A stretch of DNA of 61,422 nucleotides. Origin: a virus (Duplodnaviria > Caudoviricetes). Positions within the stretch are counted from its first letter, which is position 1, and each line of letters starts with the position of its first letter. The notes under the pieces were generated by a model. That model saw only the letters and a list, made by a program, of their open reading frames with translations. It made no database searches and had not been told where the DNA came from. The translations under genes and the position numbers were made by a program. Positions 4,449-60,727 of this stretch are shown here, piece after piece. The DNA is taken from the IMG/VR virus record IMGVR_UViG_3300033407_000369, positions 1 to 61,422 of that record; one strand, 5' to 3'.

Positions 4449-4450
4449 AA

Positions 4451-11841: not shown

Positions 11842-12222
11842 ATGGCAAGAGTGGTTGCAGCAGACATAACGGCAATCATGGACGTCGATTCGTCCATCAC
11901 CGACTTGACCCCGTTTATTACAATGGGGAATTTGCTAGTCGATAGTACTTTGTCTAATCAAGGACTTTCCGAATCCCTGTTGACTGAAATTGAAAAGAAT
12001 GTGGTCGCTCATTTGATTTGTTCCCGCGATCCTAGGGCGGCAGAGGAGCGAGCAGGCACCGGTGGAGAAATTCAGGTAAAATATACCGGCAAGTGGGGTG
12101 AGGGCTTGAAATCGACGCCATACGGCCAAAACGCCATGTTGCTTGACCCAACTGGGCGACTGGCCAATCGGGGCGCAAAACGGGCCACAATCAGCATGAT
12201 TGATCATTCGGTGGAGCCATGA
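11842..12222 (+). CDS. Head-tail adaptor (DUF4054-like)
   Basis: AHL...LKSTPYGQ motif; first gene of the neck block. Confidence 0.7.
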   Translation: MARVVAADITAIMDVDSSITDLTPFITMGNLLVDSTLSNQGLSESLLTEIEKNVVAHLICSRDPRAAEERAGTGGEIQVKYTGKWGEGLKSTPYGQNAMLLDPTGRLANRGAKRATISMIDHSVEP

Positions 12223-38750: not shown

Positions 38751-39666
38751 ACAATCCGTAAATTGAACTACATTCGGTCGTCTCCGGCTTCGTTAGCCCA
38801 AAGCCGATTCGCTTGCCGCCATAGTGGGTTTTAGACCATCTTACCACGGCATCTATATGCGCACGGCTGTATCCTTCACCGGGGATGGTATCGCTCGAGA
38901 AAAACGTGGCGCATTGCCAGGGGGTTGCTTGAGCAACCATTCTTTCCCATTCTCGGATTCGGTCAATCACTTCGGGGAATCTGGCCTGAATTTGGAACAT
39001 TTCGTCTTTTCCGCAATGAATACACGGCATGCATCCAACTCGCTTAAACCCCATTGAATATAGCGGGTTCGGTTTTATTCCATGCCTTTTTGCCATTGTG
39101 AAAGTTCGTTCTGCGGTCCATCCCAAAATAGGTCGCACGACAATAAAATATTTATCTTCCCTCTGCCATTGGGGGAGATGCATTCTTGCAAGAGATTCGT
39201 CCGCACGTACCCCTTGCCATGAATATACCCGCTCCCCGTCCTGTTGTTTTGAATTGCTAAAATCGGTAAGAATTTCCCGCTTTAATTCCACGGAGCAAAA
39301 CCTCGCTTTAGTTGACGGGAAGCGAGATTTATATATCGCCAAATCTAAAAAAGGGCTGCCGGTTGGCACCAGTAGGTTGGCGGCACTATCTGCGAATTCT
39401 TGGGATACGCCATGCTTTCCAGGCCATTTTGTTTTGATAAACTCCGCCTTTTTGGCCATTCTTACCGAAAAATCGGCCTTAACTCTGAATATTGGCCCTG
39501 TTGCCTCTTCCAAATAATCCAAATAATCCATTGTAACTTGGTGTTCGTTGCCAGTATCGGCAAAGACGGCGATGTGCTCAATGCCTTTTTCAATGGCGAC
39601 TAGGCGAGTAGCAAGGCTATCCTTCCCCCCGCTCATGCTGATTATATGGGTTGCTTTGGGTCGCAT
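38743..39666 (-). CDS. PAPS reductase-family (PP-loop) protein
   Basis: SGGKDS, DTGNE, RFCS-x-x-LK, GVRADES-x-x-R and RVGCMPC motifs. Confidence 0.85.
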   Translation of the reverse strand: MRPKATHIISMSGGKDSLATRLVAIEKGIEHIAVFADTGNEHQVTMDYLDYLEEATGPIFRVKADFSVRMAKKAEFIKTKWPGKHGVSQEFADSAANLLVPTGSPFLDLAIYKSRFPSTKARFCSVELKREILTDFSNSKQQDGERVYSWQGVRADESLARMHLPQWQREDKYFIVVRPILGWTAERTFTMAKRHGIKPNPLYSMGFKRVGCMPCIHCGKDEMFQIQARFPEVIDRIREWERMVAQATPWQCATFFSSDTIPGEGYSRAHIDAVVRWSKTHYGGKRIGFGLTKPETTECSSIYGLCE

Positions 39667-40686
39667 CTACTCTCCAATCAAACAAATTACATGCTTGAAA
39701 TTCTCACCCTCGAACAGCATCGAATTTTCCCCAACCACGCAGTGCGTCACGTGATCCAGGATATCGGCCAGCATCGACGGGGACACCAGGAATTCAATCT
39801 TATCCCCGCTGAACGCGCAATTGACCGATTCTTCGAACCACCCATAGTCCCCTTCGCCCCGGATGACCATGCGCTTGTTCTCGACCGTGATCTTGACTTC
39901 CTCGTCCCGCGCAATCTGGGCGTTGCTAAACACCCCGGCCTTGTCCAGCACTTCCTTCATCGATCCGGGCAACTTCAGCTCCACCCCTTCGACAATTAGG
40001 AATGGTGAAATGTCCGGGAATTCGTCGGCGTAGGTGCGACACGAGAAGACCACGCCATTCTTGGCCCTAAAATGCGCCCAGCCGGTCGTCTGGCAGAATT
40101 CCTTAACCGAGTACCGCACCAGGCTCTTCGCGGCGGTGGCGGGAATACAGAGGCTTTCCTTGAAGGCTTTCTTACCGGCCTGCCCGATGTCAATCCGGAT
40201 GATCCGGAAGTCGTCACTGGCTTCGATGAGTTGGCCCTTGATATGGCAGCAGGTCAGGATCGGCTTGCTCATGTCTTTAGCGGCAAAGTTCATGGCCATC
40301 TTCAGGGCGGGCAGGAAGGTATCGGGAATGGCCGTAAACTTGTCAGCCAGGGTTCCTAGCTCGTCCAACGGCAATTTGATTTCCGCTTCGATCTTGATGC
40401 CGGCCTTGGCCCGCTTCCCGGAAATCAGGAGTTCGTTGTCGGTGATTTGGATGTCGATGTCGTCGTCCTTGAGCTTGGATACCAGGGCGTACAGTTCGTT
40501 TGCTCGGACGGCCCCGGTGATTTGAAGATCAAGGGGATGGCGGACGGCGATTTCGTCGTTGTAGGTTACGACCTCGCCGGGCAGGAATGCGAAGGAAGTT
40601 GCTTGTTCAATCACGTCTCGCTGCCCCAACCCCGGACGAACTGCATCAAGAATCGCAACAAATTCGGCTTTATTTATTTTTGCCAT
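39667..40686 (-). CDS. dnaN: DNA polymerase III beta sliding clamp
   Basis: 339 aa; ASDDFRI (cf. ATDGHRL), EFPD; in the replisome block. Confidence 0.8.
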   Translation of the reverse strand: MAKINKAEFVAILDAVRPGLGQRDVIEQATSFAFLPGEVVTYNDEIAVRHPLDLQITGAVRANELYALVSKLKDDDIDIQITDNELLISGKRAKAGIKIEAEIKLPLDELGTLADKFTAIPDTFLPALKMAMNFAAKDMSKPILTCCHIKGQLIEASDDFRIIRIDIGQAGKKAFKESLCIPATAAKSLVRYSVKEFCQTTGWAHFRAKNGVVFSCRTYADEFPDISPFLIVEGVELKLPGSMKEVLDKAGVFSNAQIARDEEVKITVENKRMVIRGEGDYGWFEESVNCAFSGDKIEFLVSPSMLADILDHVTHCVVGENSMLFEGENFKHVICLIGE

Positions 40687-41302
40687 ACCGGTTCTCCTTC
40701 AATGATTTTGATATTTTTAGTTTGGTTTCTTCTGAACAAACTCTGCCCCGGCTCTTAGCCCCTATTCGACTTTTTGTCAGCTCACTTCTTTTGGCTCCTA
40801 GGTTATGGCTTATCACGTGCGCGGAATGGTTAGTCACCGTTAAATTTTCAATTCTATCATCAGAAGGGTCACCGTTAATGTGGTGAACTATTTCGTTGCT
40901 CAATAATGAGCGTCCTATTCCTTTTTCTACGACAATTCTTGCGCGGGCTTTATATTCACCCTTAGAAATTCTAATAAAAATACGACCGCCCTTCACCGTC
41001 ATTATCCCGCCGCTCCAATTATGGTGTTTATCACCAGATTTCGCTTCGGATAGCTTTCGACGAGTTTGTTCTGATTTTATTCTACCAGTGCTGGAAACAG
41101 ATAATTTTTTTCTGGTTTCTTCTGAAATTTTTATATTCTTCCTGGACTCAGAAAGGCGCTCTTTTGTTTTTTTTGAATGTTGTTTGCCATAAAAAGGATT
41201 GTCTTCCCCATGCGTATTGTGCCCAGAAACATAGCTGCGAAATTCTCCGGGTTTGAATTCGTTAACTTCTTGACCACAACCACATTTGCATTCTCGCGAC
41301 AT
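40670..41302 (-). mobile_element. Free-standing NUMOD3/HNH homing endonuclease
   Basis: NPFYGKQHS and SEETRKKLS repeats; VHHINGDPSDDRIENL. Confidence 0.88.
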
Positions 41303-41365
41303 TTTTGCCCTCCCTATAGGTTGATTTTCAGAATAATAACCTGGGTTGGCGAAGAAAGCTGTATT

Positions 41366-41434
41366 TTATTTATCCTTTGCGGCCAGACCTGGCTTGACAG
41401 CTTCGAGGGCTTCCAGTAGGGTTTTCTTTAACAT
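41366..41434 (-). pseudogene. Remnant 5' end of a dnaN allele (MLKKTLLEALEAVKPGLAAKDK*)
   Basis: Aligns with the dnaN N-terminus (FVAILDAVRPGLGQRD); own RBS AAGGAG. Confidence 0.6.
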
Positions 41435-41446
41435 TTTGGCTCCTTG

Positions 41447-42151
41447 TTATTTGATTGCGATCCAGCCGGCAAAATTCATCCAGCGCCATATACAATCGAC
41501 ATTTTTAAACCCTGCCATGTGGAGAAGTTCTTCGTTCCATTTTGCGGTAACTGGGACAAGGACACCTTCGAGAGACATTTTTTTTCTCTGGATTTGCTCT
41601 TCGGAGTACCCGTTTGCCCTTTTCATATCGAGGTAGGCAGAAACCATTACTCGATCAATATACGAATTGGCGCCAAGAACTTTCTCAATAAAAATAAATG
41701 CACCGCCAGGGAGCAGATGATTATAGACCGATTGAACAATCCATTGACGATACTCAATCGGGACAAACTGAATAGTTAGAACGGACAAAATAAGATTCGC
41801 TGGCGCTATCGACCCCGGAATTCCTTCGCGGAGATCGTGCATTTCTATTTTTACACAATCATTCCCCGAAAACCTTTTTTTAGCGGCAGAAATCATTGGA
41901 GCCGAATATTCAAGGCCAAAAAATTTATTTTCGGCGCCGTTCGCGATTAGTCCTGCGATTGCTTCGCCACGAGAGCATCCAATGTCAATTACTACCGAAC
42001 GGCCATTGATGAACCTCTTCGCGATTTCAGTGGTAATATTCCGCATTATTTCGTACTGTGGAATTGATCGGCCAAGCATATCGTCAAAGCAAGAAGTTAC
42101 ACCCTCATCAAATTCCCATTTCTTACCCGGCTGAACATTATCTTTATTCAT
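41447..42151 (-). CDS. cmoA: CmoA-like carboxy-SAM synthase
   Basis: FDE-x-V-x-x-x-FDDML-x-RSIP-x-Y, DIGCSRG, TIQF, EK, K-x-x-x-LEGV and NF-x-x-x-IA-x-K motifs. Confidence 0.8.
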   Translation of the reverse strand: MNKDNVQPGKKWEFDEGVTSCFDDMLGRSIPQYEIMRNITTEIAKRFINGRSVVIDIGCSRGEAIAGLIANGAENKFFGLEYSAPMISAAKKRFSGNDCVKIEMHDLREGIPGSIAPANLILSVLTIQFVPIEYRQWIVQSVYNHLLPGGAFIFIEKVLGANSYIDRVMVSAYLDMKRANGYSEEQIQRKKMSLEGVLVPVTAKWNEELLHMAGFKNVDCIWRWMNFAGWIAIK

Positions 42152-43581
42152 AGCCCGAACCCTCCAGCTGGTGCCAAATACTTATTCTTGAATTCGTTGC
42201 GGTAAAATGCCATCGCTTGCTGCTTGCCGCCAAATATCTTTTGAATGTCTTCTTTAATCCCTGCGCCATCTTGAAAAGCTACTTTTGGGCGGTAAAGAAT
42301 TTCTTTATCTATTATACTTAATGAAAACGCCGCTGACAAAATATTTTTCAGATTTTTCCCATCTCTTATTATTTCAACTGGTAGCGACAGCAAAAACCGG
42401 ACTAAATTTTTATTTAAAAATGGCAACCGGCTTTCTACTCCAAAATGCATAAATATTTTATTGGTTCTCGGGAAGTTTTTCTTTTCTTGAGAAGAAAAAA
42501 GCTCTTTTCTGTATTGATGAAAATCCTGTTTTTTTAATTGGTGATAGCTGAATGCATAGCTCGCGAGCAATTCATCAGCACCCTCGCCGGAAAAAACTAC
42601 TTTGAAACCATCTTCGCTAATTTTTTTTGCTAACCAATAACAGATCCAGCCAATCTCGATTTGCGCTTTATACGGCATTTCAATAATGTCAATTATTTTA
42701 CTAAGGTCTCCCCTTATTGGCCGGGGGATTTTCACTTCGACCAGTTTAATACTCAGGGTATCCGCCAGTTTCCTTGCATATTTAAGATCGTTCGATTTTT
42801 CATTATATACCGCGGTATACGCGGTGATATCAGGAGTTGTCAGTGAAAGTAAATATGTAATAATCGAACTGTCAATACCGCCAGAAAGCAATGTACAGAC
42901 CGGTACATCCGAAATGGTTCTTTCCAACACAGACTTTTCTAAAAAGGTACGAACCTTTTTCGACGAAGCATCAACATTAAGCGAGCTTTTTGTAATTGGA
43001 ACCTCGTAAAAAGGCGCTGCTGAATACCCTTTTGCGGTAATTTTTAAAATAGATCCTGGTGGGGCATTCATCGAAAGGGCAATAGGAGCACCAATTTGCT
43101 TCAAAACTTTTAATTCAGAACAAAACTGAAATGGATATTTTGGAATAAAATGAAGCGGGATTTCTCCAAAAATATCCCTCGCCAAATAGAATCCATCTTC
43201 TCCAGCTACGCACCAGGCAACAGCAAACATACCACCTAGCCGCTCAATTCCCTTTGCCCCAAATTTATCTATTATGGCCGCAACAACTTCGGTGTCGGAA
43301 TCGGTGTTGAATATCACTCCAGCTTGCTGAAGTTCTGTTTTTAATTCGCGGTAGTTCCAGATTTCTCCGTTGAACGAAATTGTTACCGATCCAAAGGTAA
43401 ACGGCTGATTCCCTCGTTCGGAAAGATCAATTATTGATAATCTTGTATGGCCAAAAATTACAGTATCGTTCGAAAATATTCCTTCTGAATCTGGCCCCCG
43501 ATGTCGTAGCAGTTTAACCGCACGTCGAATATCTATAGCAGATTTCGGCCCACAATTAAACTGCCCGACGATGCCACACAT
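42148..43581 (-). CDS. asnB: Asparagine synthetase B-like amidotransferase
   Basis: MCGI, HRGPD, RLSIID, NGEIWN, SDTEV, LLSGGIDSS and SGEGADE motifs. Confidence 0.93.
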   Translation of the reverse strand: MCGIVGQFNCGPKSAIDIRRAVKLLRHRGPDSEGIFSNDTVIFGHTRLSIIDLSERGNQPFTFGSVTISFNGEIWNYRELKTELQQAGVIFNTDSDTEVVAAIIDKFGAKGIERLGGMFAVAWCVAGEDGFYLARDIFGEIPLHFIPKYPFQFCSELKVLKQIGAPIALSMNAPPGSILKITAKGYSAAPFYEVPITKSSLNVDASSKKVRTFLEKSVLERTISDVPVCTLLSGGIDSSIITYLLSLTTPDITAYTAVYNEKSNDLKYARKLADTLSIKLVEVKIPRPIRGDLSKIIDIIEMPYKAQIEIGWICYWLAKKISEDGFKVVFSGEGADELLASYAFSYHQLKKQDFHQYRKELFSSQEKKNFPRTNKIFMHFGVESRLPFLNKNLVRFLLSLPVEIIRDGKNLKNILSAAFSLSIIDKEILYRPKVAFQDGAGIKEDIQKIFGGKQQAMAFYRNEFKNKYLAPAGGFGL

Positions 43582-44678
43582 TATATTTTACTCAGAATAG
43601 TGTTATAAATATGTTCTGCGACCACTTTCATCATTAACGGTGGCACCGCCCTCCCAAGGCGCTCCCATTTTTTTATAAAATTGCCGTGGAGAATATAGTC
43701 GTCAGGGAAAGACATAATACGCAGGCATTCTTGCAGTGAAATGAAACGAAGTTCGTCAAAATGCATATAACTCTTAACGCGACTTGCTAAAATTGTGGGG
43801 GACGGTAGATCCTTATGCAGCCGATGAAAATTATACCCGTGGCCCTTTGGATGTATATCGCCAATAGATTGGCCTGGCTGCAGCTTTCGGAACCAATCAC
43901 CATAGGTTCCGCCAGGTATTGTTAAATATGAGAGATTTTCTTCGTCCCAAATAATCGGGTCGATATTTCGAAATGCAGAACTGGCACTAATCCATTTTTC
44001 AACAGTCCTTTTGGGAAACGAAGGAGAAATACCAAGATCATCACGAACTCCAATTATAATAAGGCGCTCTCTTGTCTGTGGAACACCGTAATCTGCCGAA
44101 TTCAAAATTTTCCAGCGGACTTTATACCCCGCTTTTTTAAATTCGGAAAGTATCGATACACTTTTGTTTAGGCCAAATCCAGAATTAACTCCGCCGAGAA
44201 TAGCTTTCGCCGCACCAATTGATAACCCTTTGACATTTTCCGAAATAAAGACTTTCGGGCGAACTTCACGCAAAATCCGCACAAATTCAAAAAATAAGTC
44301 GTCGACACGTTGATTTGTATCGCTATATTTTTTTACTTTTCCCCACGCCTTCTCGCGTTTGCCAGACATACTGAATGATGCACATGGCGGGCTTCCATCC
44401 AATATATCCAAGTCGCCTGGTTTGATTCTCAGGCGACGGCATATCATATTCCCAGTTAATTCTCGAATATCTCCGGGGAATATAAATGTATTCGGATAAT
44501 TAGCCCGGTACGTATCAACTGCCGATGGGATAAATTCGTTGATAGCGAGAATCTTCCCTCCTGCTAGGCGGTAACCAGTTGAAGACCCGCCACCGCCAGC
44601 AAAGGTAGAAACGACGGTGAAAAGCCCTTTCTTTTCACCGTCGTAAACATCTTTTATTGAATAAGGGATCGAAATCAT
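43581..44678 (-). CDS. C5 cytosine DNA methyltransferase, possibly a carboxymethyltransferase
   Basis: FAGGGG, GSPPC, ENV and YGVPQ-x-RER motifs; motif X reads LGRAVPP instead of GNAVPP. Confidence 0.9.
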   Translation of the reverse strand: MISIPYSIKDVYDGEKKGLFTVVSTFAGGGGSSTGYRLAGGKILAINEFIPSAVDTYRANYPNTFIFPGDIRELTGNMICRRLRIKPGDLDILDGSPPCASFSMSGKREKAWGKVKKYSDTNQRVDDLFFEFVRILREVRPKVFISENVKGLSIGAAKAILGGVNSGFGLNKSVSILSEFKKAGYKVRWKILNSADYGVPQTRERLIIIGVRDDLGISPSFPKRTVEKWISASSAFRNIDPIIWDEENLSYLTIPGGTYGDWFRKLQPGQSIGDIHPKGHGYNFHRLHKDLPSPTILASRVKSYMHFDELRFISLQECLRIMSFPDDYILHGNFIKKWERLGRAVPPLMMKVVAEHIYNTILSKI

Positions 44679-45448: not shown

Positions 45449-45781
45449 TTTAATTCTCCTTCGTTCTGGTTTTGATTTTTGGCCATCCGGCCTGATTGAC
45501 AAATCCAGAATATTAGATTGCAAAACGAAAAGCTACAATTATTTTGCTGGATCCCAAATTTTTATTTGCTCTAGCTGGCTACCCCGGGATTTAACGGCCG
45601 GGACAGCCAAAACAACAAATAAATTAGTCCTGTTTTCTGTAGGGATTACTTTTTACAAACTCATAGTCGGCTTTAACAACCCCGGCGCATAATTTACCTC
45701 CTTTGGCCAAATGCCTATTTGGTTATATGATTTGCTATAACCTATTATACTCAGCCGCCCCGATTTTCAGAAAATTATTTT

Positions 45782-47320
45782 TTAAAAACTCCCTAAATGC
45801 GGCCGTCCAATCTCCAACCGCTGAAGAACAGTAGCAAATTTCTTCCCTCGCGCCCCTTCCCGGACCATCAATTGATTGATCCGAAATAACCCGATTTCCG
45901 CTTCCGAATCAGTTTGATTCAGCCCGAAAAACGCTGTAGCGTGGGCATATTGGCGCTTGTCTTCACTAAAATTGTCCAGTTCGAGCCATTCCTTTTTGTA
46001 CGCATCGGCGTCGGCTTGAGTTACAACCACGACTAGACAATGCCATTTATGGGCAATGGCCCGCAGCTTCTTCCAAATTGAATTCTTCCGGTGGCGTTGA
46101 TCCAGGCGCTTGTCTTCCTCGTTGACGTCCATAATATCCGGGTAATCCACCAGTACTACATCGGGCAAAAATCCCTGAGACTTCCAGATTTCAAGCTGCT
46201 GCTCTAGCATCCGGGGGGATAACGTATCGGCCGGATATTCAGCAAAGTTCCAACCCCCACCCCGAACCCTTTTGACAAATTGCCGTTCTGCCTCATACCC
46301 TTCTTTCCAGGTCAGAGGCTGGCATTTCTCCCGGATTTTGAGCCAAGCTGCTCCGATGAAATCGGCTTCGCCTTGACATTTACGGCAAGTTATATGGCCG
46401 GGGAACTCGTAGAAAATTGGCTTCAAAATTTCCGCAATCGGATTCTTTTTGTCCCAATGTTTCAGCCTGGTCTTCCCAGCCATCGGCGCCATACCTGGCC
46501 CATGCTGGCAGTCCCCATTCTGGTTTTTCCAACAATCAGCAACCGGGACGATTAAATCGCCACAATATTTGATCTTGTCGCTCCTTCTCGACAAATAGAT
46601 ATATTTCCGCAGTTCCATAGCCGATTTCGACATATCACCGGCAGCAAAAAACGCAACCTTTCGGCTGTTGCGCTGGGCCTGAAATGCAATATCCATCAAA
46701 ATCCAAGTCTTACCGATTTTTTCCTGACCGAGAAATGCAACAAAACCGCCCCGGACCATATGCTCGTTCAAGAGTTCACCCAGCTTGCCGGAATATTCAA
46801 CAATCGGCTCAGGGACATCTTCGAATATTTTTCTGGTTCGTTCAGGATCGTCCGCAAAAAAGTCGGGGTTAGCCTGAACCATCTTATCGGGAGCCAAGAA
46901 CCCGCCAATCTTAGCGCAGGCCGAACGGTAATCGCCCCGGAGGGCGTCCACCTTGATTTCATCCGCAAGCAGGATTACGGCTCGTTCTGCGAAGTATTTG
47001 ATTGCTTCGTCGGTCAGGACTCCGACGTTGATCTGATTTTCTGCGAAATCATCAGACAAATCTTGCAAAATATCTTCAATGTCTTCCTGCTGGTCGCTGT
47101 CCAGCAACCCACGCCGGGCATAAGCGGAATAGACCAATTGAATGTCCTGGTTCGGTGCGGCGTTGTGTTTTCTGAAATGCCTGATGCACCAACCGCAGAT
47201 CGTCTTTGCTGCCTGGGATTGCAGCAATTCGGGCCGGTAGATATGGTCGACTTCGCGTAAAAAATCGGCAGATGCAATCATGCCGATAGTGATATTCCGC
47301 TCTATATAATCATTTGGCAT
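45782..47320 (-). CDS. dnaB: DnaB-like replicative helicase
   Basis: GQEKIGKT, VDYPDIM and VTQA motifs. Confidence 0.8.
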   Translation of the reverse strand: MPNDYIERNITIGMIASADFLREVDHIYRPELLQSQAAKTICGWCIRHFRKHNAAPNQDIQLVYSAYARRGLLDSDQQEDIEDILQDLSDDFAENQINVGVLTDEAIKYFAERAVILLADEIKVDALRGDYRSACAKIGGFLAPDKMVQANPDFFADDPERTRKIFEDVPEPIVEYSGKLGELLNEHMVRGGFVAFLGQEKIGKTWILMDIAFQAQRNSRKVAFFAAGDMSKSAMELRKYIYLSRRSDKIKYCGDLIVPVADCWKNQNGDCQHGPGMAPMAGKTRLKHWDKKNPIAEILKPIFYEFPGHITCRKCQGEADFIGAAWLKIREKCQPLTWKEGYEAERQFVKRVRGGGWNFAEYPADTLSPRMLEQQLEIWKSQGFLPDVVLVDYPDIMDVNEEDKRLDQRHRKNSIWKKLRAIAHKWHCLVVVVTQADADAYKKEWLELDNFSEDKRQYAHATAFFGLNQTDSEAEIGLFRINQLMVREGARGKKFATVLQRLEIGRPHLGSF

Positions 47321-47328
47321 TTGCGACC

Positions 47329-47482
47329 TTATAACAACTCTTTGCAGTTCGTTCGAGCGCGTCGGTAAATCCGCAAGGTGCGCCAAGGTTTTCCGTTGAC
47401 CGTTATTCGGTAATTATTGCTCCGGGTTCCAGGGTAGAATACCAGAGTATTGGGTTTCCCGCGTCTCAGCTTAGCGTTATGC
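47329..47482 (+). repeat. attC-like site 0
   Basis: TTATAAC...GTTATGC; arms homologous to site 4 (GGTAAAYCCGC; TTGGGTTTCC(C)GCGTCTCA). Confidence 0.65.
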
Positions 47483-47656
47483 TGAACAATAGCATCCCGG
47501 TTTTCCGTCATGGAACGGGCAGCCACATTCATCGCAGAAAGCAGCAAAAGACGGATACTTGTCGATATTCGCAGGAATGATCTTCCAGTTTGGCTTACTG
47601 CCAAGCTTGCTCTGGTTTTCAAAAATTCCCCCTTTTTTTAGCTTTGTCTGCATCAT
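47477..47656 (-). CDS. Cassette ORF, small Cys-rich hypothetical
   Basis: FCDECGC...CYC; stop lies in the GTTA of site 0. Confidence 0.45.
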   Translation of the reverse strand: MMQTKLKKGGIFENQSKLGSKPNWKIIPANIDKYPSFAAFCDECGCPFHDGKPGCYCSA

Positions 47657-47660
47657 TTCT

Positions 47661-47852
47661 TTACTCGTCATCACTGTACCTCAATAGTTTGTGTTCCCAG
47701 AGGATTGCCAAAATATCATCCATAAATTCAAGATCCCTGGCAACCTCGTTTCCGTTTCTCTTCTCATATTCGTCGCGGATCGCCAGGACATCATCCGGTT
47801 CAAAACACCACCCGCACATCATGTCTTTTTCTTTTGATAGCCTTAATTTCAT
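47661..47852 (-). CDS. Cassette ORF, hypothetical
   Basis: RBS GAGGAG. Confidence 0.5.
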   Translation of the reverse strand: MKLRLSKEKDMMCGWCFEPDDVLAIRDEYEKRNGNEVARDLEFMDDILAILWEHKLLRYSDDE

Positions 47853-48019
47853 TTTCTCTCCTCTTCCCCAAATGGCCTACTCACACATGGCCCCGGTCCA
47901 CGGCGGATGTGCTCTCATATGCTTTCGGCCATAATGTAAAAAGGCGGGGTGGCCTGCGTCTTTTCGCAGTAATCAAGAGCAACCAAGATTAGGTACCGCC
48001 ACCCCATAAATTTAAAATC

Positions 48020-48085
48020 GCATAACCAGCGCATTAAGTCGGATTGCCGAAACTGCCCGGCAACCGCTTATGCTGGTCGTTAGAG
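48020..48085 (+). repeat. attC-like site 1
   Basis: GCATAAC...GCAT-T-AAG / CTTATGC...GTTAGAG. Confidence 0.85.
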
Positions 48086-48313
48086 CGCATGCTCACGTTC
48101 CAGCATTTCAGGCTTCTCGCCATCGTCCAGCGGCATCAGCCAGTTGGCTTGCGCAAACCAACTCACACCGGGCGGCACCGGGCACGGGTGTCGCGGGAAA
48201 AGCACTTCGTAGTCGCCTTCATCGTCCAGCGGCCCGACGATCTCGCCTACAGCGCCCAGGGGTGGCATGCACCCGTCAGCGCCAATCAGCATCACAAGCT
48301 GTCCAACCTTCAT
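48080..48313 (-). CDS. Cassette ORF, hypothetical (SH3/KOW-like start MKVGQLV)
   Basis: RBS GGAG; stop lies in the GTTA of site 1. Confidence 0.55.
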   Translation of the reverse strand: MKVGQLVMLIGADGCMPPLGAVGEIVGPLDDEGDYEVLFPRHPCPVPPGVSWFAQANWLMPLDDGEKPEMLEREHAL

Positions 48314-48333
48314 AGCGTTTCTCCAAAAATGCG

Positions 48334-48395
48334 CTCTAACCCCGCCAATCGAGCGGACGCCATAAAGCGGGCGCCGCTCATCGGCAACGTTATAA
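48334..48395 (+). repeat. attC-like site 2
   Basis: CTCTAAC...AAT-C-GAGCGG / CCGCTCAT...GTTATAA. Confidence 0.85.
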
Positions 48396-48602
48396 TTCGG
48401 TAGCAACCAACCTATATTTTGGTTTGCCATTTTCGGTAATCACAACAGGTTCACCAGCTGTCAGGCAGTGTTTGGCTACAGCGGCGCAAGCCTCTCCTGT
48501 CACATCTGTTTTGTTTGACAACCATGTTCTGCCGTCCTTGGCCACATGCCCGCAGAATATCCTATTTGTCAATGGTGATGGTGCTACGTGTAGTTGTTTC
48601 AT
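48390..48602 (-). CDS. Cassette ORF, phage-type hypothetical (SPLTNRIF-x-G...K-x-DVT)
   Basis: RBS GGTGGAG; stop lies in the GTTA of site 2. Confidence 0.6.
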   Translation of the reverse strand: MKQLHVAPSPLTNRIFCGHVAKDGRTWLSNKTDVTGEACAAVAKHCLTAGEPVVITENGKPKYRLVATEL

Positions 48603-48620
48603 GTCTCCACCTTTTTAAAA

Positions 48621-48673
48621 TTATAACAATCGCATTAACGCAGACGGCGGCTCCGCTGAACTTATCGTTAAAC
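48621..48673 (+). repeat. attC-like site 3 (short, degenerate)
   Basis: TTATAAC...GTTAAAC. Confidence 0.65.
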
Positions 48674-48934
48674 TGCCCGAGCATTCCACCGTTGGGCAAC
48701 AAACAACCTTACAAACTCAAGCGTTTCGTCATCCATGCACCCGGTGGAAAAATCAAACTCGCCGCATACCCCGCATTGTATGCGGTGGCACCCTGGCCCT
48801 TTTGGATCACCGCAGTCACACCATTCCACTCCACCACCACAAAAAGGGCAGTTTAACAAAACGTTAGAGTTCGACGGTAAACCCGCCGCGTTTGTTGGCT
48901 CCTGGCCAGTATGTTCTTTCGCTAAATTCGTCAT
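48668..48934 (-). CDS. Cassette ORF, Lar-like restriction alleviation Zn-finger
   Basis: L-x-x-CPFCGG...I-x-C-x-x-CG...WN-x-R; stop lies in site 3. Confidence 0.7.
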   Translation of the reverse strand: MTNLAKEHTGQEPTNAAGLPSNSNVLLNCPFCGGGVEWCDCGDPKGPGCHRIQCGVCGEFDFSTGCMDDETLEFVRLFVAQRWNARAV

Positions 48935-48983
48935 TCCATCCGTCTCCGTGTTGGGTTTCCGCGTCTCAACTCAATCGTTAGCG
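48851..48983 (+). repeat. attC-like site 4
   Basis: GTTTAAC...GAGTTCGACGGTAAACCC / GGGTTTCCGCGTCTCAACTC...GTTAGCG. Confidence 0.8.
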
Positions 48984-49196
48984 AGATGCTCTTTCGTACG
49001 CCCTTAACGGCCGGGTCACAAGCAAGTCAAGGCGCAGGTTTTGAATTAAATTGGCCACATCTCCAGCCACTTCTGCGGCATACGTCAGGTCGCCGGTCTC
49101 TTCCATGCGCTTCGCCACGCGGTCAAACTTGGTGGCATAACCGTTAAGCGTTTTTGACATTGTCTTTATCAGGGTAACGGTTTCTTGCGTTTCCAT
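48978..49196 (-). CDS. Cassette ORF, helical hypothetical
   Basis: RBS AAGGAG; stop lies in site 4. Confidence 0.6.
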   Translation of the reverse strand: METQETVTLIKTMSKTLNGYATKFDRVAKRMEETGDLTYAAEVAGDVANLIQNLRLDLLVTRPLRAYERASR

Positions 49197-49211
49197 ATCA
49201 CTCCTTTAAAT

Positions 49212-49299
49212 CGCTAACAATAAAATTAAGCAGACGCCGAGAACGTCCGCGCTACTGCTGCACCATCAAGGGCGGCGCAGCTTATTTAAGCCGTTACCC
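49212..49299 (+). repeat. attC-like site 5
   Basis: CGCTAAC...AAAT-T-AAGCAGACGCC / GGCGCAGCTTATTT...GTTACCC. Confidence 0.85.
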
Positions 49300-49485
49300 T
49301 GCCAGGGGAGGCCGGAGTTTATGCACTTTAATCAGTGCCTCTTCTAGCATCGTCCCTCGGGGGTCGTCTTGTGCGTCCAGCCAATCCCAAACCCATTCGG
49401 TCAGCCGCACACCCTTGGTCAATTTTTTAAAGCCTGGGGGGCGGGTTGGTCGCCCGCTCCCCGGCTGAACTCCGCCTCGGCTCAT
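49294..49485 (-). CDS. Cassette ORF, small DNA-binding protein (GG-x-x-x-GSGR + RHH-like)
   Basis: SRGGVQPGSGRP...VRL-x-x-W-x-x-DWL; stop lies in site 5. Confidence 0.6.
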   Translation of the reverse strand: MSRGGVQPGSGRPTRPPGFKKLTKGVRLTEWVWDWLDAQDDPRGTMLEEALIKVHKLRPPLAG

Positions 49486-49682
49486 TTCGCGACCAGGTAC
49501 TTGCGGAGTGCGGCGGCTTTCATTTCTTCAAGGCTCCCGACATAAAAACCGTCAACGATAACTTCGGCGACACAAGTTCCAAACTCGGTGGCGTCAGCGA
49601 GTGTCTCGTGGATGTCGCCATCGTTGTCGATGTAGTAGCTGGTGGTGTTATTCTGGTCGGTTGCGGCGTTGATGGTCTTCAT
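49482..49682 (-). CDS. Cassette ORF, acidic hypothetical
   Basis: RBS GAGGAG; ATGA-coupled to the next gene. Confidence 0.55.
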   Translation of the reverse strand: MKTINAATDQNNTTSYYIDNDGDIHETLADATEFGTCVAEVIVDGFYVGSLEEMKAAALRKYLVAK

Positions 49683-49734
49683 GGCTTTCTCCTCGGTTTT
49701 GGTTTCGGGCTGTATTGCCCCTCTCTTGATTATA

Positions 49735-49764
49735 GTTATACCAAAACCTTTTCCGGGCTGTAAA
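49735..49764 (-). promoter_or_regulatory. Sigma70-like promoter inside a cassette
   Basis: TTTACA-18 nt-TATAAC with TG extension; a TATAAT follows immediately. Confidence 0.5.
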
Positions 49765-49806
49765 GAAAAAAGTTTAACCTAAATCATTTTATTTTGTACC
49801 CGGCCA

Positions 49807-49893
49807 GGGTAACAAAATTATCAAGCAGACCAGAAGAAAGGCTGTCCAAGGTCTGCACGCTCAGGGGCTGGCAGCTTATAAAAGCCGTTGGGC
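49807..49893 (+). repeat. attC-like site 6
   Basis: GGGTAAC...TTAT-C-AAGC / GCTTATAA...GTTGGGC. Confidence 0.8.
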
Positions 49894-49901
49894 TGCAAAA
49901 A

Positions 49902-50081
49902 CTATTTCAAATACTCGGGCTTTACCTGTTGGTGAATTGTCTTAATCACCATGTCTCCGTAGAAAAAAGCGTAGCTGGTAGTCTTCGCCAGCCAGTAACA
50001 GCCGTAAATAACGCCACCGGCCAGCGTCAAGCCACCGACAAATACAGCAATTATCCCAACACTTTTAAATAAATTCTTCAT
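49902..50081 (-). CDS. Cassette ORF, small membrane protein
   Basis: Single hydrophobic helix; RBS GGAGG. Confidence 0.55.
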   Translation of the reverse strand: MKNLFKSVGIIAVFVGGLTLAGGVIYGCYWLAKTTSYAFFYGDMVIKTIHQQVKPEYLK

Positions 50082-50109
50082 CAAATTCCCTCCAAGTATA
50101 GTTTTTACA

Positions 50110-50203
50110 CTCCAACAAAACATTGTACGCGGACGGGCAACAAGCCCGGTTGCGCTATTCGCGGCAGGTTCTTAGGCCCGCCGGTAAATTGTGGTCGTTA
50201 TGC
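50110..50203 (+). repeat. attC-like site 7
   Basis: CTCCAAC...GGACGGGC / GCCCGCC...GTTATGC. Confidence 0.75.
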
Positions 50204-50416
50204 AATAAAAAGATCATCGTGCAAATCTTTCCAGCATAATATCCAAAATGGCACGTATTCGCTTTTTATGTTTGGGCATTTATTGGCACTTTTCAGTTGG
50301 TTGTCCGTGAGTTCGTGGCTTTCCCCGGTGTAAACTCCGCCCGAGGTAGTCAAAATCCTGGTCCCCTTGGGCAACGGTTTATTGTCTGCGAGTAGGTTGT
50401 ATATCTCAAGCTTCAT
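50198..50416 (-). CDS. Cassette ORF, hypothetical
   Basis: RBS GGAG; stop lies in the GTTA of site 7. Confidence 0.55.
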   Translation of the reverse strand: MKLEIYNLLADNKPLPKGTRILTTSGGVYTGESHELTDNQLKSANKCPNIKSEYVPFWILCWKDLHDDLFIA

Positions 50417-50439
50417 GGGCCTTCTCCGTAATATTAACA

Positions 50440-50527
50440 GCATAACAATAAAATTCATCGGATGCCGAGAATGTCTGTGGCCCTACCGGGAACAACTCCC
50501 AGGCGGCACCGCTGATTATCGGCGCCG
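50440..50527 (+). repeat. attC-like site 8 (right core site lost)
   Basis: GCATAAC...AATTCATCGGATGCCG / CGGCACCGCTGATT; no terminal GTT; overlaps the DnaC-like stop. Confidence 0.6.
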
Positions 50528-51250
50528 ATCCTTCCCGGTCATCTCAACCAGGCGGCACCAACCAAATATCCGACTAGTCAATCTATTGTCCCCAAGCCTA
50601 TTCGTCAAATCCAGCAAATTCAAATTTGACGTGATTATTGTCGTTTTATTGTACTCAAAACGATGAGATAAAATTAAATAAAGCGTGGATGCCACCCAAT
50701 CAGTGATCTTTTCAACCCCGATGTCGTCTAACACCAACAGGTCGATCCGTTGATAATATTCGACCAAATCTGTTGAGGTGGATTTCGTTGGCCCGGAGTA
50801 GGTTTTGCGGATGTCGTGCAAAAGTTGGGGGCAGGAGATAAACCGGCAATCTTTTGCTAAGCCAGGGCACTGAGATATTGCAGAGAGCAAAATTTCTGCG
50901 GCCTTGAAGGTTTTCCCACATCCAACAGGACCGAAGATAAAAAGCGATTCCGATGCGAATTCTTCAACCTTTCCCGATTCCTCAACGGCATTTGCTGTCC
51001 GGGGTGGAACCCCGCAACCCTCAAGATGAGCGGATGACGGAATGGCGTCGAAAGAAAGTTTATCCGCACATGGCTGACAAAATTTCATGTCTGACGCAAC
51101 CTGCCGGCCGCAAGATCCGCAGCCTTTTGTCTTCGGGGCGGCTTCTTCTTCCTGGCATCGTTGGCAAAGTTCAACGACCGATCCGGGAGGGCATGTTGCG
51201 CCACATTCCAGGCAGGTCAAGCGGCCGCTGAACTTAATATTTGTAGCCAT
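50516..51250 (-). CDS. DnaC/IstB-like helicase loader ATPase
   Basis: GPVGCGKT, LLVLDDIG, TIITSN and R-x-x-SRI...G-x-D-x-R motifs; N-terminal Zn ribbons. Confidence 0.9.
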   Translation of the reverse strand: MATNIKFSGRLTCLECGATCPPGSVVELCQRCQEEEAAPKTKGCGSCGRQVASDMKFCQPCADKLSFDAIPSSAHLEGCGVPPRTANAVEESGKVEEFASESLFIFGPVGCGKTFKAAEILLSAISQCPGLAKDCRFISCPQLLHDIRKTYSGPTKSTSTDLVEYYQRIDLLVLDDIGVEKITDWVASTLYLILSHRFEYNKTTIITSNLNLLDLTNRLGDNRLTSRIFGWCRLVEMTGKDRRR

Positions 51251-52157
51251 CGTAGTTTTCCCTCAAGAAATCTTTGATCTCGTCTGGAATATTGGGGTCA
51301 TTAGCATTATACTCTTTGCCGTCCATATTCCAGGTAAATATTTTCGGACAGGGTTGCTTTTTGAGCAAAGGGGAGGGGTTTTGTTTTTCTTGTTTGATTT
51401 TTTGGACAGCGGCCCAACCAGCGTCGATATCGGCGGCCGAGTTCAGCCAACGAAGTTTATTTAGCCACGTAGCCGGGAGGGGGATATTAGATTGATCAGA
51501 TTGCCATTGCTTGGTTTTGGATTGTTCATAAATTGCCCGGCGGATAGTTTTCCATTCCGGGCGGTTTGGATTTTTGGAATTGCATAATTTATTCCATGCC
51601 CGGAGGGCGTCCCCTTTTGAATTCTTCCGGGGGTAGATTTTCCAGAAGTTTTCAAAAAGTTTCCCGGTAACAAACAAAGATTTATTTATTTCTTTTTTTT
51701 GTTTAATATTTAATTGATTACTCCCCATCTCTTGGGGAACCCCTCCCCCATCTCTTGGGGAACCCTCCCCCATCTCTTGGGGTACCCCATCTCTTGGGGG
51801 AGGGGGGTCATTTAATGCTGGGTGACCAGTTTTTATCGCTTCCACTTCTGGCACTGTTGCAAAATATTTATTTGATGTATAGCTCCCGGAATCGTTCAGG
51901 CGCCGTTTTGCAACAATCCACCCTGACTGTTTGAGATTATCCATGTGGTTCGAAACAGAATTGACTGAACAACCCATCATTTTAGCCAGGGTGCTGGTTG
52001 AGGGCGTCGCCCAGTCTTTTCCATCCCACATGAATTCAGCGAGGCAAACAACTAATAGTTTTGATAATGGGGACAAATCTGAATGAAGCGCGGCCCGCCT
52101 CCAATTGAAGGCCGGGTAAATCTTTCCTGACACATCAACATCATCTTGTTCTGACAT
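51234..52157 (-). CDS. Replication initiator (winged HTH, lambda O-like)
   Basis: PS-x-x-TLAKMMGCS-x-x-SV HTH; FENFWKIYPRK and PATWLN-x-x-RW motifs; internal iterons. Confidence 0.85.
   Translation of the reverse strand: MSEQDDVDVSGKIYPAFNWRRAALHSDLSPLSKLLVVCLAEFMWDGKDWATPSTSTLAKMMGCSVNSVSNHMDNLKQSGWIVAKRRLNDSGSYTSNKYFATVPEVEAIKTGHPALNDPPPPRDGVPQEMGEGSPRDGGGVPQEMGSNQLNIKQKKEINKSLFVTGKLFENFWKIYPRKNSKGDALRAWNKLCNSKNPNRPEWKTIRRAIYEQSKTKQWQSDQSNIPLPATWLNKLRWLNSAADIDAGWAAVQKIKQEKQNPSPLLKKQPCPKIFTWNMDGKEYNANDPNIPDEIKDFLRENYDGYKY
51723..51799. repeat. Replication origin iterons: 4 x CCCCATCTCTTGGGG
   Basis: Copies at 51723, 51746, 51768 and 51785; adjacent AT-rich tract about 51670-51720. Confidence 0.85.
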
Positions 52158-57924: not shown

Positions 57925-58557
57925 ATGGTCAGACAATCAAAGCCAGGACAAATCAAATCCCCGGCAATCAAACCCAAGATCAAGTTGCCGAAAAAACCTA
58001 AGCGGGAACCGTTGAGATTGCACGATGGCAGGGTCTTGCAAAACAAAGTGGGTTGCCCCCCTGTATATCATCCGGTAGATACTCCGGTCCTGGCCCGCAA
58101 TATGATGCTGCTTGCAAATTGTACCGACGAAAGATTAGCGGATTTGCTGGGTATTACTGTTGAATGTATCTATAAGTGGTGTAACGAGTATCCAGAATTC
58201 ATTCAGGCCATCAATGATGGCCGCGACCGTGCTGACGCCCAAGTGGTGCGGAGTTTGTTCCAGCGGGCCGTCGGATATACCCATGATGATGTCCATGTTT
58301 CATCCTTTCAAGGGGAGGTGACGCTGACCCCAATCAAGAAGCACTACCCGCCTGATGTCGGCGCAATCCAAATGTATCTGGCTAATCGGACCAGACGCCG
58401 ACCGGAAGAAGAAAGGTGGCGGGTCAATCAAAATATCGAACTGACCGGCAGAGACGGCAAAGCCCTCCAGCAGACCACGATCAACCAATGCATAATCATC
58501 CTCCCGCAAAAGCAAATGGCGGATCAGCTAGACAATCAACAGGTAATTGACATCTGA
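57925..58557 (+). CDS. terS: Terminase small subunit
   Basis: HTH (TDERLADLLGI...IYKW...YPEF), SLFQRAVGY, KHYPPD and ELTG-x-DG motifs; upstream of TerL. Confidence 0.8.
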   Translation: MVRQSKPGQIKSPAIKPKIKLPKKPKREPLRLHDGRVLQNKVGCPPVYHPVDTPVLARNMMLLANCTDERLADLLGITVECIYKWCNEYPEFIQAINDGRDRADAQVVRSLFQRAVGYTHDDVHVSSFQGEVTLTPIKKHYPPDVGAIQMYLANRTRRRPEEERWRVNQNIELTGRDGKALQQTTINQCIIILPQKQMADQLDNQQVIDI

Positions 58558-59993
58558 TGGGCCAGGCCGAGCAAATACAGGAGCCAACCAGGATCAGCCC
58601 CCAGCCCGGCCCGCAAACCCAATTTTTGGAATGTGATGCCGATGTGGTATTTTATGGCGGTTCTGCCGGTGGCGGCAAATCGTTTGCTCTGTTGCTCGAT
58701 CCGCTATATCATTATAACAACCCATTGTTTGGCGCCGTAATCTTTCGCCGAACCATGAAGCAAGTCACAAACGAGGGTGGGTTGTGGGACACCGCTACTG
58801 AGCTGTATGTACCGATTAATGGTACCCCGATCCAATCCCCGACATACCATTTCACATTTCCGTCCGGGATGCAGGTTTCGTTTGCCCATATGGAGCACGA
58901 GAAAAACCGGCTGGATTGGCAGGGTTCGCAAATACCGTGGATTGGATTTGACGAACTGACGCATTTCACCTGGAAGCAGTTCAGCTATATGTTTTCCCGC
59001 AATCGTTCTGGTTCGGGTGCTGCCGGGAAAATTCGTGGAACATGCAACCCTGACCCTGACAGCTGGGTCCGCAAATTCATCGACTGGTATATCGGGGCTG
59101 ACGGGTATGCTATCCCGGAGCGTTCGGGGGTTGTTCGCTGGCTGATTGTTGAAGGGGACGAAATTGTCTGGGCAAACAGTAGACGGGAGTTGCTGGAGCT
59201 GTATCCCGGCAGGACAGACGGCGTTGATATTTTTCCAACTTCATTTACTTTTATCCGCTCGTCAGTCTACGACAACAAAATCCTGCTCAAAAAAGATCCA
59301 CGGTATTTGGCCAACCTTCATGCCCTGAGCCGGGTTGAAAAAGCCCAGCTTTTGGATGGCAACTGGAACGTCAGACCGTCCGCAGGTGAATTCTTCAACC
59401 GCAACGACTTCGAAATCGTCTCTGCTGTCCCCGCCGGTGCTAAAAGGGTCAGGGCATGGGATCTCGCCGGGACTGACCGGGACGCAGACGACAAAAAGAA
59501 TCGCAAAGACGGCGGCCCGGCATATACCGCTGGGGTCAAAATGGCTAAGGTTGGCGGCATCTACTACATTGAGGATGTCAATCGTTTTCAAATTGATGCC
59601 AGCCGGGTGATTTCGTCCATCCGAAACATTGCCAGTCTGGACGGGGTAAAAGTATCTATTCGCCTCCCACAAGACCCTGGCCAAGCTGGCAAGTCGCAAG
59701 TCAAAGCGTTTATCAAAGAGCTGGCCGGGTATGTGGTCAAATCACTGCCGGTCACCGGGTCAAAGATCGCCAGGGCAACCCCAATGTCCGCCCAAGCACA
59801 GGCCGGGAACGTCAAGTTAGTTAGGGGTGCCTGGAATGAGGCGTTTTTGATCGAAGCTGAGAATTTCCCGGAGGGGACATATAAAGACCAGATTGACGCA
59901 GCTGCGGATGCATTTGACGAGCTGACCAACATCAAGCGGGTTGGCGTTTGGGGAACCCAGCCGGACGAATGGACCAACAGGGGGCGCAGATGA
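58557..59993 (+). CDS. terL: Terminase large subunit
   Basis: PQPGPQ, YGGSAGGGKS, FDELTHF, TCNP, WDLA and DQIDA motifs. Confidence 0.95.
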   Translation: MGQAEQIQEPTRISPQPGPQTQFLECDADVVFYGGSAGGGKSFALLLDPLYHYNNPLFGAVIFRRTMKQVTNEGGLWDTATELYVPINGTPIQSPTYHFTFPSGMQVSFAHMEHEKNRLDWQGSQIPWIGFDELTHFTWKQFSYMFSRNRSGSGAAGKIRGTCNPDPDSWVRKFIDWYIGADGYAIPERSGVVRWLIVEGDEIVWANSRRELLELYPGRTDGVDIFPTSFTFIRSSVYDNKILLKKDPRYLANLHALSRVEKAQLLDGNWNVRPSAGEFFNRNDFEIVSAVPAGAKRVRAWDLAGTDRDADDKKNRKDGGPAYTAGVKMAKVGGIYYIEDVNRFQIDASRVISSIRNIASLDGVKVSIRLPQDPGQAGKSQVKAFIKELAGYVVKSLPVTGSKIARATPMSAQAQAGNVKLVRGAWNEAFLIEAENFPEGTYKDQIDAAADAFDELTNIKRVGVWGTQPDEWTNRGRR

Positions 59994-60727
59994 AAGTCGC
60001 AGTTATCCCGGCTAGATTCGATTCGTCTCGTTTTCCGGGGAAACCGCTGGCCCTCATTGCGGGCAAACCGATGGTCATCCGGGTTTGGGAACAGGCCATA
60101 AAAATTCCTGGCGTTGATTTGGTGGCTGTGGCTACTGATGATGGTTTGATTGCCAATGCGGTTAGAGATGCTGGTGGAATCGCTTGGATGACAGGGGAAC
60201 ATCAATCTGGGACCGACCGCATTGCAGAAGCCTGCTCTCTTATGCCAGCCGACGCGATTGTCTTGAACGTACAGGGCGATTTACCGTTTTTCCGGCCTGA
60301 GGTAGGGGCAGAACTTATCCGGGCCTTAGAGAGCGATCCTGGAGCTGATATCGCTACCCCGGTCATTGCCGTAAAGGACGATATTGTTCCGACTAGTAAA
60401 AATGCGGTTAAGGCGGTCTTCGGGTCTAGCGGAAATGCACTCTATTTCAGCCGGGCGGTTATCCCGTTTGTCCGGGAAATTACAGATGGTCCGCTCTGGT
60501 ATCGCCATATCGGGGTTTATTGCTATCGCAATTCGGCATTGCAGAGATTCGCCAAGTTGCCGCAATCCCGGCTTGAGAAAATTGAGTGTTTGGAACAACT
60601 CCGGGCGCTGGAAAACGGGATGAAGATCAAATGCGTCGTTGTAGACAAAGATTGCGGGCCTGAAATTAACTGCCCGAATGATTTGAAAAGACTACAGGAG
60701 GAACAAAATGGAATTGCTGCATGTTGA
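59990..60727 (+). CDS. kdsB: 3-deoxy-manno-octulosonate cytidylyltransferase (CMP-Kdo synthetase)
   Basis: IPARFDSSRFPGKPL, ATDD, SGTDR, NVQGD, ALYFSR, HIGVY and LEQLRALENG motifs. Confidence 0.95.
   Translation: MKVAVIPARFDSSRFPGKPLALIAGKPMVIRVWEQAIKIPGVDLVAVATDDGLIANAVRDAGGIAWMTGEHQSGTDRIAEACSLMPADAIVLNVQGDLPFFRPEVGAELIRALESDPGADIATPVIAVKDDIVPTSKNAVKAVFGSSGNALYFSRAVIPFVREITDGPLWYRHIGVYCYRNSALQRFAKLPQSRLEKIECLEQLRALENGMKIKCVVVDKDCGPEINCPNDLKRLQEEQNGIAAC

Follow-up and report, generated by a model that had tools for sequence, protein, structure and literature searches.

Integrons are seen as bacterial devices, and the phage examples described so far are few and small. attC clusters that lack an integron integrase (CALINs) have nevertheless already been published in virulent phages, and in that study the integrase IntI1 recombined five of six attCs taken from such phages (Qi et al. 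2023, Front Microbiol, PMC9892861). IntI can also insert cassettes at non-att genomic sites, according to a second study (Loot and colleagues, bioRxiv 10.1101/2022.09.11.507474). Here we describe an attC array in the IMG/VR virus record IMGVR_UViG_3300033407_000369, a linear record of 61,422 bp (CheckV completeness 89%), the whole of which was analysed and is called the window below. Between a DnaC/IstB-like and a DnaB-like gene lie eight complete attC-type sites and one degenerate site, all within 3.2 kb, together with ten small genes that are all on the minus strand and have good ribosome-binding sites. We consider it likely that this array is an integrase-less CALIN with eight cassettes, built and still exchanged by IntI-type recombination, with the enzyme supplied in trans.

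The features of the array and its flanks are listed here from left to right; scores in bits refer to the covariance models R1 and R2 introduced below, and ORF stands for open reading frame.

45782..47323, minus strand: DnaB-like helicase gene, left flank (Pfam DnaB_C, E 1.3e-4, below cut-off).
47329..47482, plus strand: S9, leftmost site, a long attC-type site of 154 nt (R1 13.9 bits, R2 11.1 bits).
47477..48079, plus strand: cassette 1, comprising genes j and i, a leader and attC S8.
47477..47674, minus strand: gene j, 65 aa, with a Cys-rich C-terminus (ORF and translation).
47661..47852, minus strand: gene i, 63 aa (ORF and translation).
48020..48085, plus strand: S8, attC (R2 25.5 bits, E 0.0058; R1 13.5 bits; 12 of 12 model pairs).
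48080..48313, minus strand: gene h, 77 aa, in cassette 2 (48080-48389), with a flanking 12-nt inverted repeat.
48334..48395, plus strand: S7, attC (R1 9.2 bits; 12 of 12 model pairs).
48390..48602, minus strand: gene g, 70 aa, DUF7446 / phrog_1578, in cassette 3 (48390-48667) (Pfam 2.3e-16, PHROG 1.3e-12).
48621..48673, plus strand: S6, a short attC of 53 nt (R1 8.9 bits, R2 11.6 bits).
48668..48934, minus strand: gene f, 88 aa, Lar-like restriction alleviation protein, in cassette 4 (48668-48977) (phrog_599, 6.7e-6).
48851..48983, plus strand: S5, a long attC-type site of 133 nt (R1 11.4 bits, 5' end only).
48978..49196, minus strand: gene e, 72 aa, in cassette 5 (48978-49293).
49212..49299, plus strand: S4, attC (R1 23.3 bits, E 0.0036; R2 22.9 bits, E 0.022; 11 of 12 pairs).
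49294-49485, minus strand: gene d, in the two-gene cassette 6 (49294-49887).
49482-49682, minus strand: gene c, in the same two-gene cassette 6.
49807..49893, plus strand: S3, attC (R1 19.2 bits, E 0.031; R2 17.0 bits; 11 of 12 pairs).
49902..50081, minus strand: gene b, 59 aa, hydrophobic, in cassette 7 (49888-50197).
50110..50203, plus strand: S2, attC (R1 12.9 bits; 9 of 12 pairs).
50198..50416, minus strand: gene a, 72 aa, in cassette 8 (50198 to ~50527).
50440..50527, plus strand: S1, degenerate terminal attC remnant (recognised by eye; unmatched by R1 or R2 at E<=10).
50516..51250, minus strand: DnaC/IstB-like AAA+ loader gene, right flank (Pfam IstB_IS21 4.6e-14, Bac_DnaA 6e-6).

Nine palindromes had been placed here by an earlier annotation made from the DNA letters alone (the sequence-only reading), and a check of the sequence found all of their coordinates correct. 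That reading had also named the flanking genes dnaC and dnaB; the IstB_IS21 match supports a DnaC-like protein on the right, while on the left the name dnaB has behind it a weak DnaB_C match that falls below the cut-off.

The identity of the sites was examined with two covariance models. R1 was built from 25 attC top strands adjoining intI or lying in known arrays, namely the class 1 cassettes in a P1 record, a Shewanella integron with its CALIN and a Vibrio anguillarum array, the copies used lying in phage or prophage records; the final coordinates were picked by eye, automatic extraction rules being too strict or too loose. In this reference set 86.5% of the cells of the R-box/L-box pairing are paired, a level reached by none of 500 shuffles, and R1, when run on the reference loci, had 41 matches with E<=0.05; they all fell in arrays and on the correct strand, and they included sites outside the training set. 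Searched over the window on both strands with filters off, R1 gave nine matches at E<=10, eight of them in the array and all eight on the plus strand, the ninth (E 9.5) being noise. All five matches of R2, a model built only from 17 attCs of two other phages, likewise lie in the array on the plus strand, with S8 at 25.5 bits. Failure to match attC models, which the sequence-only reading had named as grounds for rejecting it, is therefore not what we find. The R1 scores in the array are modest (23.3 to 8.9 bits); window-wide, only S4 and S3 fall below E 0.05 with R1, and with either model the sites that individually do so are S3, S4 and S8. The weight of the model evidence lies instead in the position, strand and register of the matches: R1 reproduces the exact ends proposed by the sequence-only reading for S2, S3, S4, S6, S7 and S8, while its matches to S5 and S9 begin at the proposed start and stop early. 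S9 is matched by both models over its 5' part only, and it has arms in common with S5.

The sites form imperfect hairpins with an L box, an unpaired central spacer and extrahelical bases, and in S4, S3, S8, S2 and S7 the model pairs are formed in 11, 11, 12, 9 and 12 of 12 cases, respectively, with differing letters. In plain minimum-free-energy folding, only about three of the nine sites per strand clearly beat their shuffles (z-scores -0.04 to -3.0), and the hairpins of S5 and S9 were judged from constrained folds only. In S7, S8 and S4 the minus strand has bulged bases in its 3' arm, and in S7 it folds into a clean hairpin with a bulged T and a bulged G. Both cores (YAAC ... GTTR) are present in eight of the nine sites, S1 being without GTT; the wider RYYYAAC/GTTRRRY consensus is only loosely matched, as is also true of the bona fide reference sites. 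A DNA pattern drawn from S3 and S4, the first to be tried, hit 11 viral loci, of which only two (L012 and L009) carry model matches; the other nine are probably chance.

One sign of cassette recombination is complementarity between sites. Each cassette would run, on the plus strand, from the TT of one G/TT core to the G of the next, with its own attC at the right end, and the start of each cassette complements the R'' core of its own attC, the footprint of a circular intermediate cut at G/TT. Past GTT/AAC, this complementarity extends for 4, 9, 6, 9, 5, 6, 2 and 4 bases in the eight units, 45 in all. As a control, 8,087 GTT..AAC pairs with a spacing of 150-700 nt were taken from the rest of the window; for eight such pairs the sum averaged 3.1 and reached at most 18 in 200,000 draws, so that the inverted cores claimed by the sequence-only reading stand well clear of expectation. 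A repeat search also recovered the gene-flanking inverted repeats.

Evidence that these units move comes from metagenomes. Contigs of four public soil or sediment runs (X1-X4) were compared with positions 45500-52000; X1 is a possible source sample and is not independent, and stretches of the window without contig cover in these runs carry no weight. A metagenome scan with the arms of S8 gave three further contigs (L049, L050 and L051). One of them, L051, reproduces window positions 47474-48083 at 99.0% identity over 611 nt. The shared stretch corresponds to cassette 1 as predicted, together with S8; on both flanks L051 differs from the window. The left neighbour of the cassette there is another attC, similarity starts two bases before G/TT, and where cassette 1 begins on the left the two contexts agree over only ~9 nt around G/TT. 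In X2, positions 47475-47810 are matched by a diverged copy of genes i and j, with 53 differences over 336 nt; this copy continues into S8 after a gap of 203 nt (47810 to 48014), and to the left of 47475 it no longer resembles the window. A contig of 1,661 nt in X4 matches 47474-47690 with two differences and is likewise unlike the window to the left. The X2 and X4 pieces keep S8 unchanged to 48083 and then share a continuation that differs from the window. In L049 and L050 only the 60 nt of S8 are alike (100% identity), and other genes adjoin, their start codons facing the site; an S5-like copy stands in a different context in X1. S8 thus accompanies genes i and j while S9 is left out, in agreement with plus-strand polarity of the sites and with exchange at G/TT. 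A discrete unit in different contexts with G/TT junctions was seen for cassette 1 only, one of the eight. Variation at the GTT junctions, whose absence together with a fixed gene order would have told against the sequence-only reading, is present in L051 and the X2 and X4 contigs, and the central claim of that reading, an integron-type cassette array, gains support from the models, the footprint and the cassette in a second context. The leader stretch 47811-48013 is absent from the diverged cassette in X2 and may be a separate insertion or a regulatory piece.

These copies bear on whether the array is a frozen relic, formed long ago through integron recombination or taken over from another element and since inherited passively, with hairpins that are only spacers or RNA structures. 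The degeneracy of S1, the weak scores of several sites, the lack of a recombinase gene in the record and the missing partner core of S9 would all suit such a relic, but in all eight units the cross-site cores remain perfect for 5-12 nt, cassette 1 occurs at 99% identity in another arrangement, implying recent exchange, and the assembly of the probable source sample breaks within the array; we regard this explanation as rather unlikely. In favouring an array that is still exchanged, we infer that the enzyme is IntI, that it originates from the host and that exchange is ongoing in this phage.

Several points weigh against this reading. Five of the eight matched sites reach only 9-14 bits with R1 and are not significant alone, and the attC assignment was made with the custom models R1 and R2. 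R1 finds no sites in the published phage CALINs TJE1 and P12002L, and one match of 17.9 bits came from G003, a 188-kb phage that has no array; the models are accordingly narrow, and lone weak matches mean little. S1 retains an AAC core and an S4-like 5' arm, with GCC in the position of GTT. The core that would partner S9, GTTATAAGG, was searched for to the left of that site and was not found. No excision junctions or circles of this phage were seen among the contigs, raw reads being outside the data. Finally, the record is 89% complete and a phage-borne integrase could lie in the missing ~11%, and the link to Desulfobacterota is only a lead to the host.

As to the source of the recombinase, six-frame profile searches of the record (TIGR02249, PF00589, PF00239) found no integron integrase and no tyrosine or serine recombinase, in line with the sequence-only reading, which had seen no integrase in the window. 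A pattern of 24 specified bases describing the S8 family matched 24 bacterial loci, mostly in metagenome-assembled genomes (MAGs) of Desulfobacterota and also in Glaciecola and Aliiglaciecola, and in four of five such genomes tested IntI scores above the curated cut-off, far from the matched sites. Because the record has no recombinase, because genomes with S8-family sites bear IntI and because IntI1 has a precedent on phage attCs, the best inference is that a host IntI acts in trans; insertion by IntI at non-att sites is a possible founding route for the array. In five Desulfobacterota MAG chromosomes (L025, L027, L039, L035, L041) the S8-family attCs lie hundreds of kb from intI and may be dispersed CALINs, single attC sites lacking integron integrases (SALINs) or prophages.

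That the phage itself encodes the recombinase, as a protein of some unrecognised family or as an IntI within the missing 11% of its genome, is very unlikely in our judgement. This would be accommodated by the 89% completeness of the record and by an 80-aa C-terminal remnant of IntI beside the array of another phage, G009, which indicates that phage-borne intI genes have existed; but no site-specific recombinase is among the ~40 larger ORFs of the window that were scanned, and arrays occur with no tyrosine or serine recombinase in G001 (50,738 bp, 98% complete), which has two of them with 5 and about 10-13 sites, and in the complete genome of PH101. Arrays are also carried by G009 and G010, and our own model recovers the published ones of Pseudoalteromonas phage H101/PH101 (four sites, 32-43 bits) and MW202573 (two sites). 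That stem-loops of regulatory or RNA-processing function guide gene shuffling without any integrase, through homologous or replication-slippage recombination between hairpins that resemble each other, is extremely improbable: identical S8 copies beside different genes would provide homology, and on the mRNA strand some sites end T-rich and S4 was flagged as terminator-like, but homologous exchange does not make the beginning of a unit complementary to the core of the site that the unit carries, the short likeness around G/TT at the left junction of cassette 1 (~9 nt) offers little to it, promoter-like and terminator-like sites are not above chance (9 observed vs 7.7 in shuffles, and 10 vs 8.8), and the sites match bona fide attC models on one strand only.

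The IntI remnant lies at L047 6251-6493 on the plus strand, which is the same as G009 11899-12060. It matches TIGR02249 positions 258-313 with 90 bits and Pfam Phage_integrase at 2.5e-17, and its neighbours are the last attC of the array on one side and the large terminase gene on the other; it points in the same direction as the antisense cassette genes. An N6/N4 DNA methylase and a PAPS-reductase-like protein are among the products of the cassettes in that array.

The array also differs in orientation from the bacterial pattern. Its plus strand is the attC top strand, since every model match in the array lies on the plus strand, the ends (AACAA... and ...CGTT) match those of reference top strands, bulged bases sit in the minus strand's 3' arm, and that strand is the better folding one in six of eight sites. 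Bulged bases in the 3' arm and better folding are bottom-strand traits according to Nivina 2016. All ten array genes are consequently encoded by the attC bottom strand. They are antisense with respect to a canonical cassette, which carries a promoterless ORF on the attC top strand, oriented for expression from the integron promoter Pc. The sequence-only reading, sound as to the sites and the footprint, had missed this location of the genes. In seven of the eight cassettes, the TTA at the cassette start is the reverse complement of the TAA stop codon of the gene.

Polarity was compared among arrays by asking where the longer open frame stops: at the R'' of the site for sense, and at R', on the other strand, for antisense. 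By this measure seven of the eight window sites are of antisense type. Of the 59 sites scored in bacterial or integron arrays, 44 are sense, 3 are antisense and 12 are neither; of the 36 sites scored in six viral arrays, 31 are antisense, one is sense (a shadow frame, at S5) and four are neither. Fisher's test by sites yields p = 2e-17, a value to be read with the fact that sites within one array are not independent; by arrays, the split is 8/8 sense for bacterial and integron arrays and 7/7 antisense for viral ones. Similarity to window sites led to four of the six other viral arrays, which leaves only PH101 and MW202573 as independent samples. In PH101 one of four sites satisfies the frame rule, and every annotated gene there is opposite in strand; MW202573 is antisense by annotation. 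The S8-family bacterial loci comprise 9 sense, 1 antisense, 9 neither and 5 unscored. The contig L050 has two attC-like matches on the minus strand (3038-3097 and 3294-3351; 17.3 and 24.7 bits), opposite in strand to three at 3941-5081, and is a mixed-polarity array carrying S8 in a phage-like early region (SSB, DUF3310, ParB_N, C5 methylase).

We propose that the units would have been assembled by IntI-type recombination of folded single-stranded attC sites at G/TT, with the enzyme acting in trans and most likely supplied, as the phage infects, by a host that bears an integron. The attC bottom strand, the recombinogenic one, would here be the coding strand as well, and the genes on it would be read by phage transcription and be silent behind Pc. 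This predicts that the coding strand of the window sites is the strand recombined by IntI, and the placement of the recombinogenic strand on the non-template strand may favour folding of the sites during infection. We suggest, tentatively and with rather less than even confidence, that phages keep a strand-inverted cassette pool of their own and that phages devoid of recombinases trade early or counter-defence genes among themselves through the integrase of the host. If so, phage cassettes would be expressed in phage transcription units and silent behind a bacterial Pc, with the reverse holding for bacterial cassettes, and, should the polarity hold in a systematic survey, phage and bacterial cassettes would form two pools with common recombination machinery and separate expression. 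Polarity thereby bears on the origin of cassettes, on the annotation of viral contigs by integron finders and on the route by which counter-defence genes, those for the Lar-like protein and methyltransferases among them, reach phages. The presence of a full-sized array in a lytic-type phage, within its replication module, and of one cassette in two arrangements further indicates that integron-type exchange does shape the accessory genomes of phages in soil and sediment communities.

The cargo of the array has few recognisable families. Genes j and i, and also d and c, have no Pfam or PHROG match; gene f, beside its PHROG match, reaches Pfam Lar at E 0.02, below the cut-off, and its ATG falls within S5. 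With tblastn, the ten cassette proteins had no match in 46 collected loci. The leader of cassette 1, between gene i and S8, is about 165-200 nt long. At the edges of the array, the ribosome-binding region of the DnaB-like gene overlaps the R'' core of S9, and S1 overlaps the final codons of the DnaC-like gene. The 12-nt sequence CCAGGCGGCACC occurs twice as an exact direct repeat, at 50499-50510 in the 3' arm of S1 and at 50548-50559 within the end of the DnaC-like gene.

Profile scans of the window ORFs show the gene content of a virulent-type tailed phage. The minus strand encodes a PolIII-alpha polymerase, a clamp-loader subunit, RecA, endonuclease VII and SbcCD-like proteins, in addition to a C5 methyltransferase, a primase, a superfamily 2 (SF2) helicase and a sigma factor. 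Two genes lie at the right of the window:

58557-59993: large terminase gene.
59948-60727, plus strand: CMP-sugar-type cytidylyltransferase gene (CTP_transf_3, 3.3e-48).

The latter directly follows and overlaps the large terminase gene, an unusual location. A cluster of likely DNA-modification genes occupies 38743-44678 on the minus strand and includes a PAPS-reductase-like protein, a 339-aa protein with a faint HSP20 match, an S-adenosylmethionine (SAM) methyltransferase, an HNH/NUMOD3 homing-type endonuclease (40670-41302), an asparagine-synthase/QueC-like amidotransferase and a C5 cytosine methylase. No isolated phage is close to this one: megablast and blastn against 50,697 records of isolated phages gave no DNA match to the array region, and the best relatives of its PolIII-alpha among isolated phages are at most 34% identical. 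Among viral contigs, the DnaB-like protein as query found no related locus and PolIII alpha found two, at 48% identity. The distant relative G003 carries no array.

Compared with known systems, the window sites share with bacterial integron arrays the AAC...GTT cores, an L box with bulged bases, an unpaired spacer, a variable loop and a stop codon in the core, and their 5' arms resemble those of Vibrio-type sites. Unlike in the class 1, Shewanella and Vibrio anguillarum arrays, the genes here are on the bottom strand. A complete integron has intI, attI and Pc; here there is no intI, and a DnaB-like gene occupies the position of these elements, attI and Pc themselves having been outside the model searches. 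The array does conform to the definition of a CALIN, at least two clustered attCs with no integron integrase nearby. T4-type phages have promoter-stem-loop mobile modules, in which small early genes are bounded by stem-loops in a plastic region and are exchanged by homologous or slippage recombination between like hairpins. The window sites differ from these modules in having integron cores and cassette footprints, and their promoter signal does not rise above chance.

Work on attC x attG insertion (Loot and colleagues, bioRxiv 10.1101/2022.09.11.507474) suggests that IntI could seed a genome that has no attI, with expression from local promoters. SALINs and small CALINs formed by that route have one attC per cassette, whereas the window array has one site more than it has cassettes; the study did not cover phage genomes. 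An antisense rule for cassettes was not found in the literature searched, subscription journals not being covered. The main text of Qi et al. (2023) does not contain the words antisense, opposite or reverse, and its supplementary tables may already record polarity. Antisense polarity as a feature of phage cassettes therefore appears to be new. The phage CALINs of that study are otherwise the closest counterparts of the array: they too are integrase-free attC clusters in lytic-type phages, with a cargo of small genes, methyltransferases among them. The TJE1 array described there has three attC sites, whereas the present one has eight cassettes and nine sites, lies in a replication module and includes one cassette seen in two metagenomic contexts.

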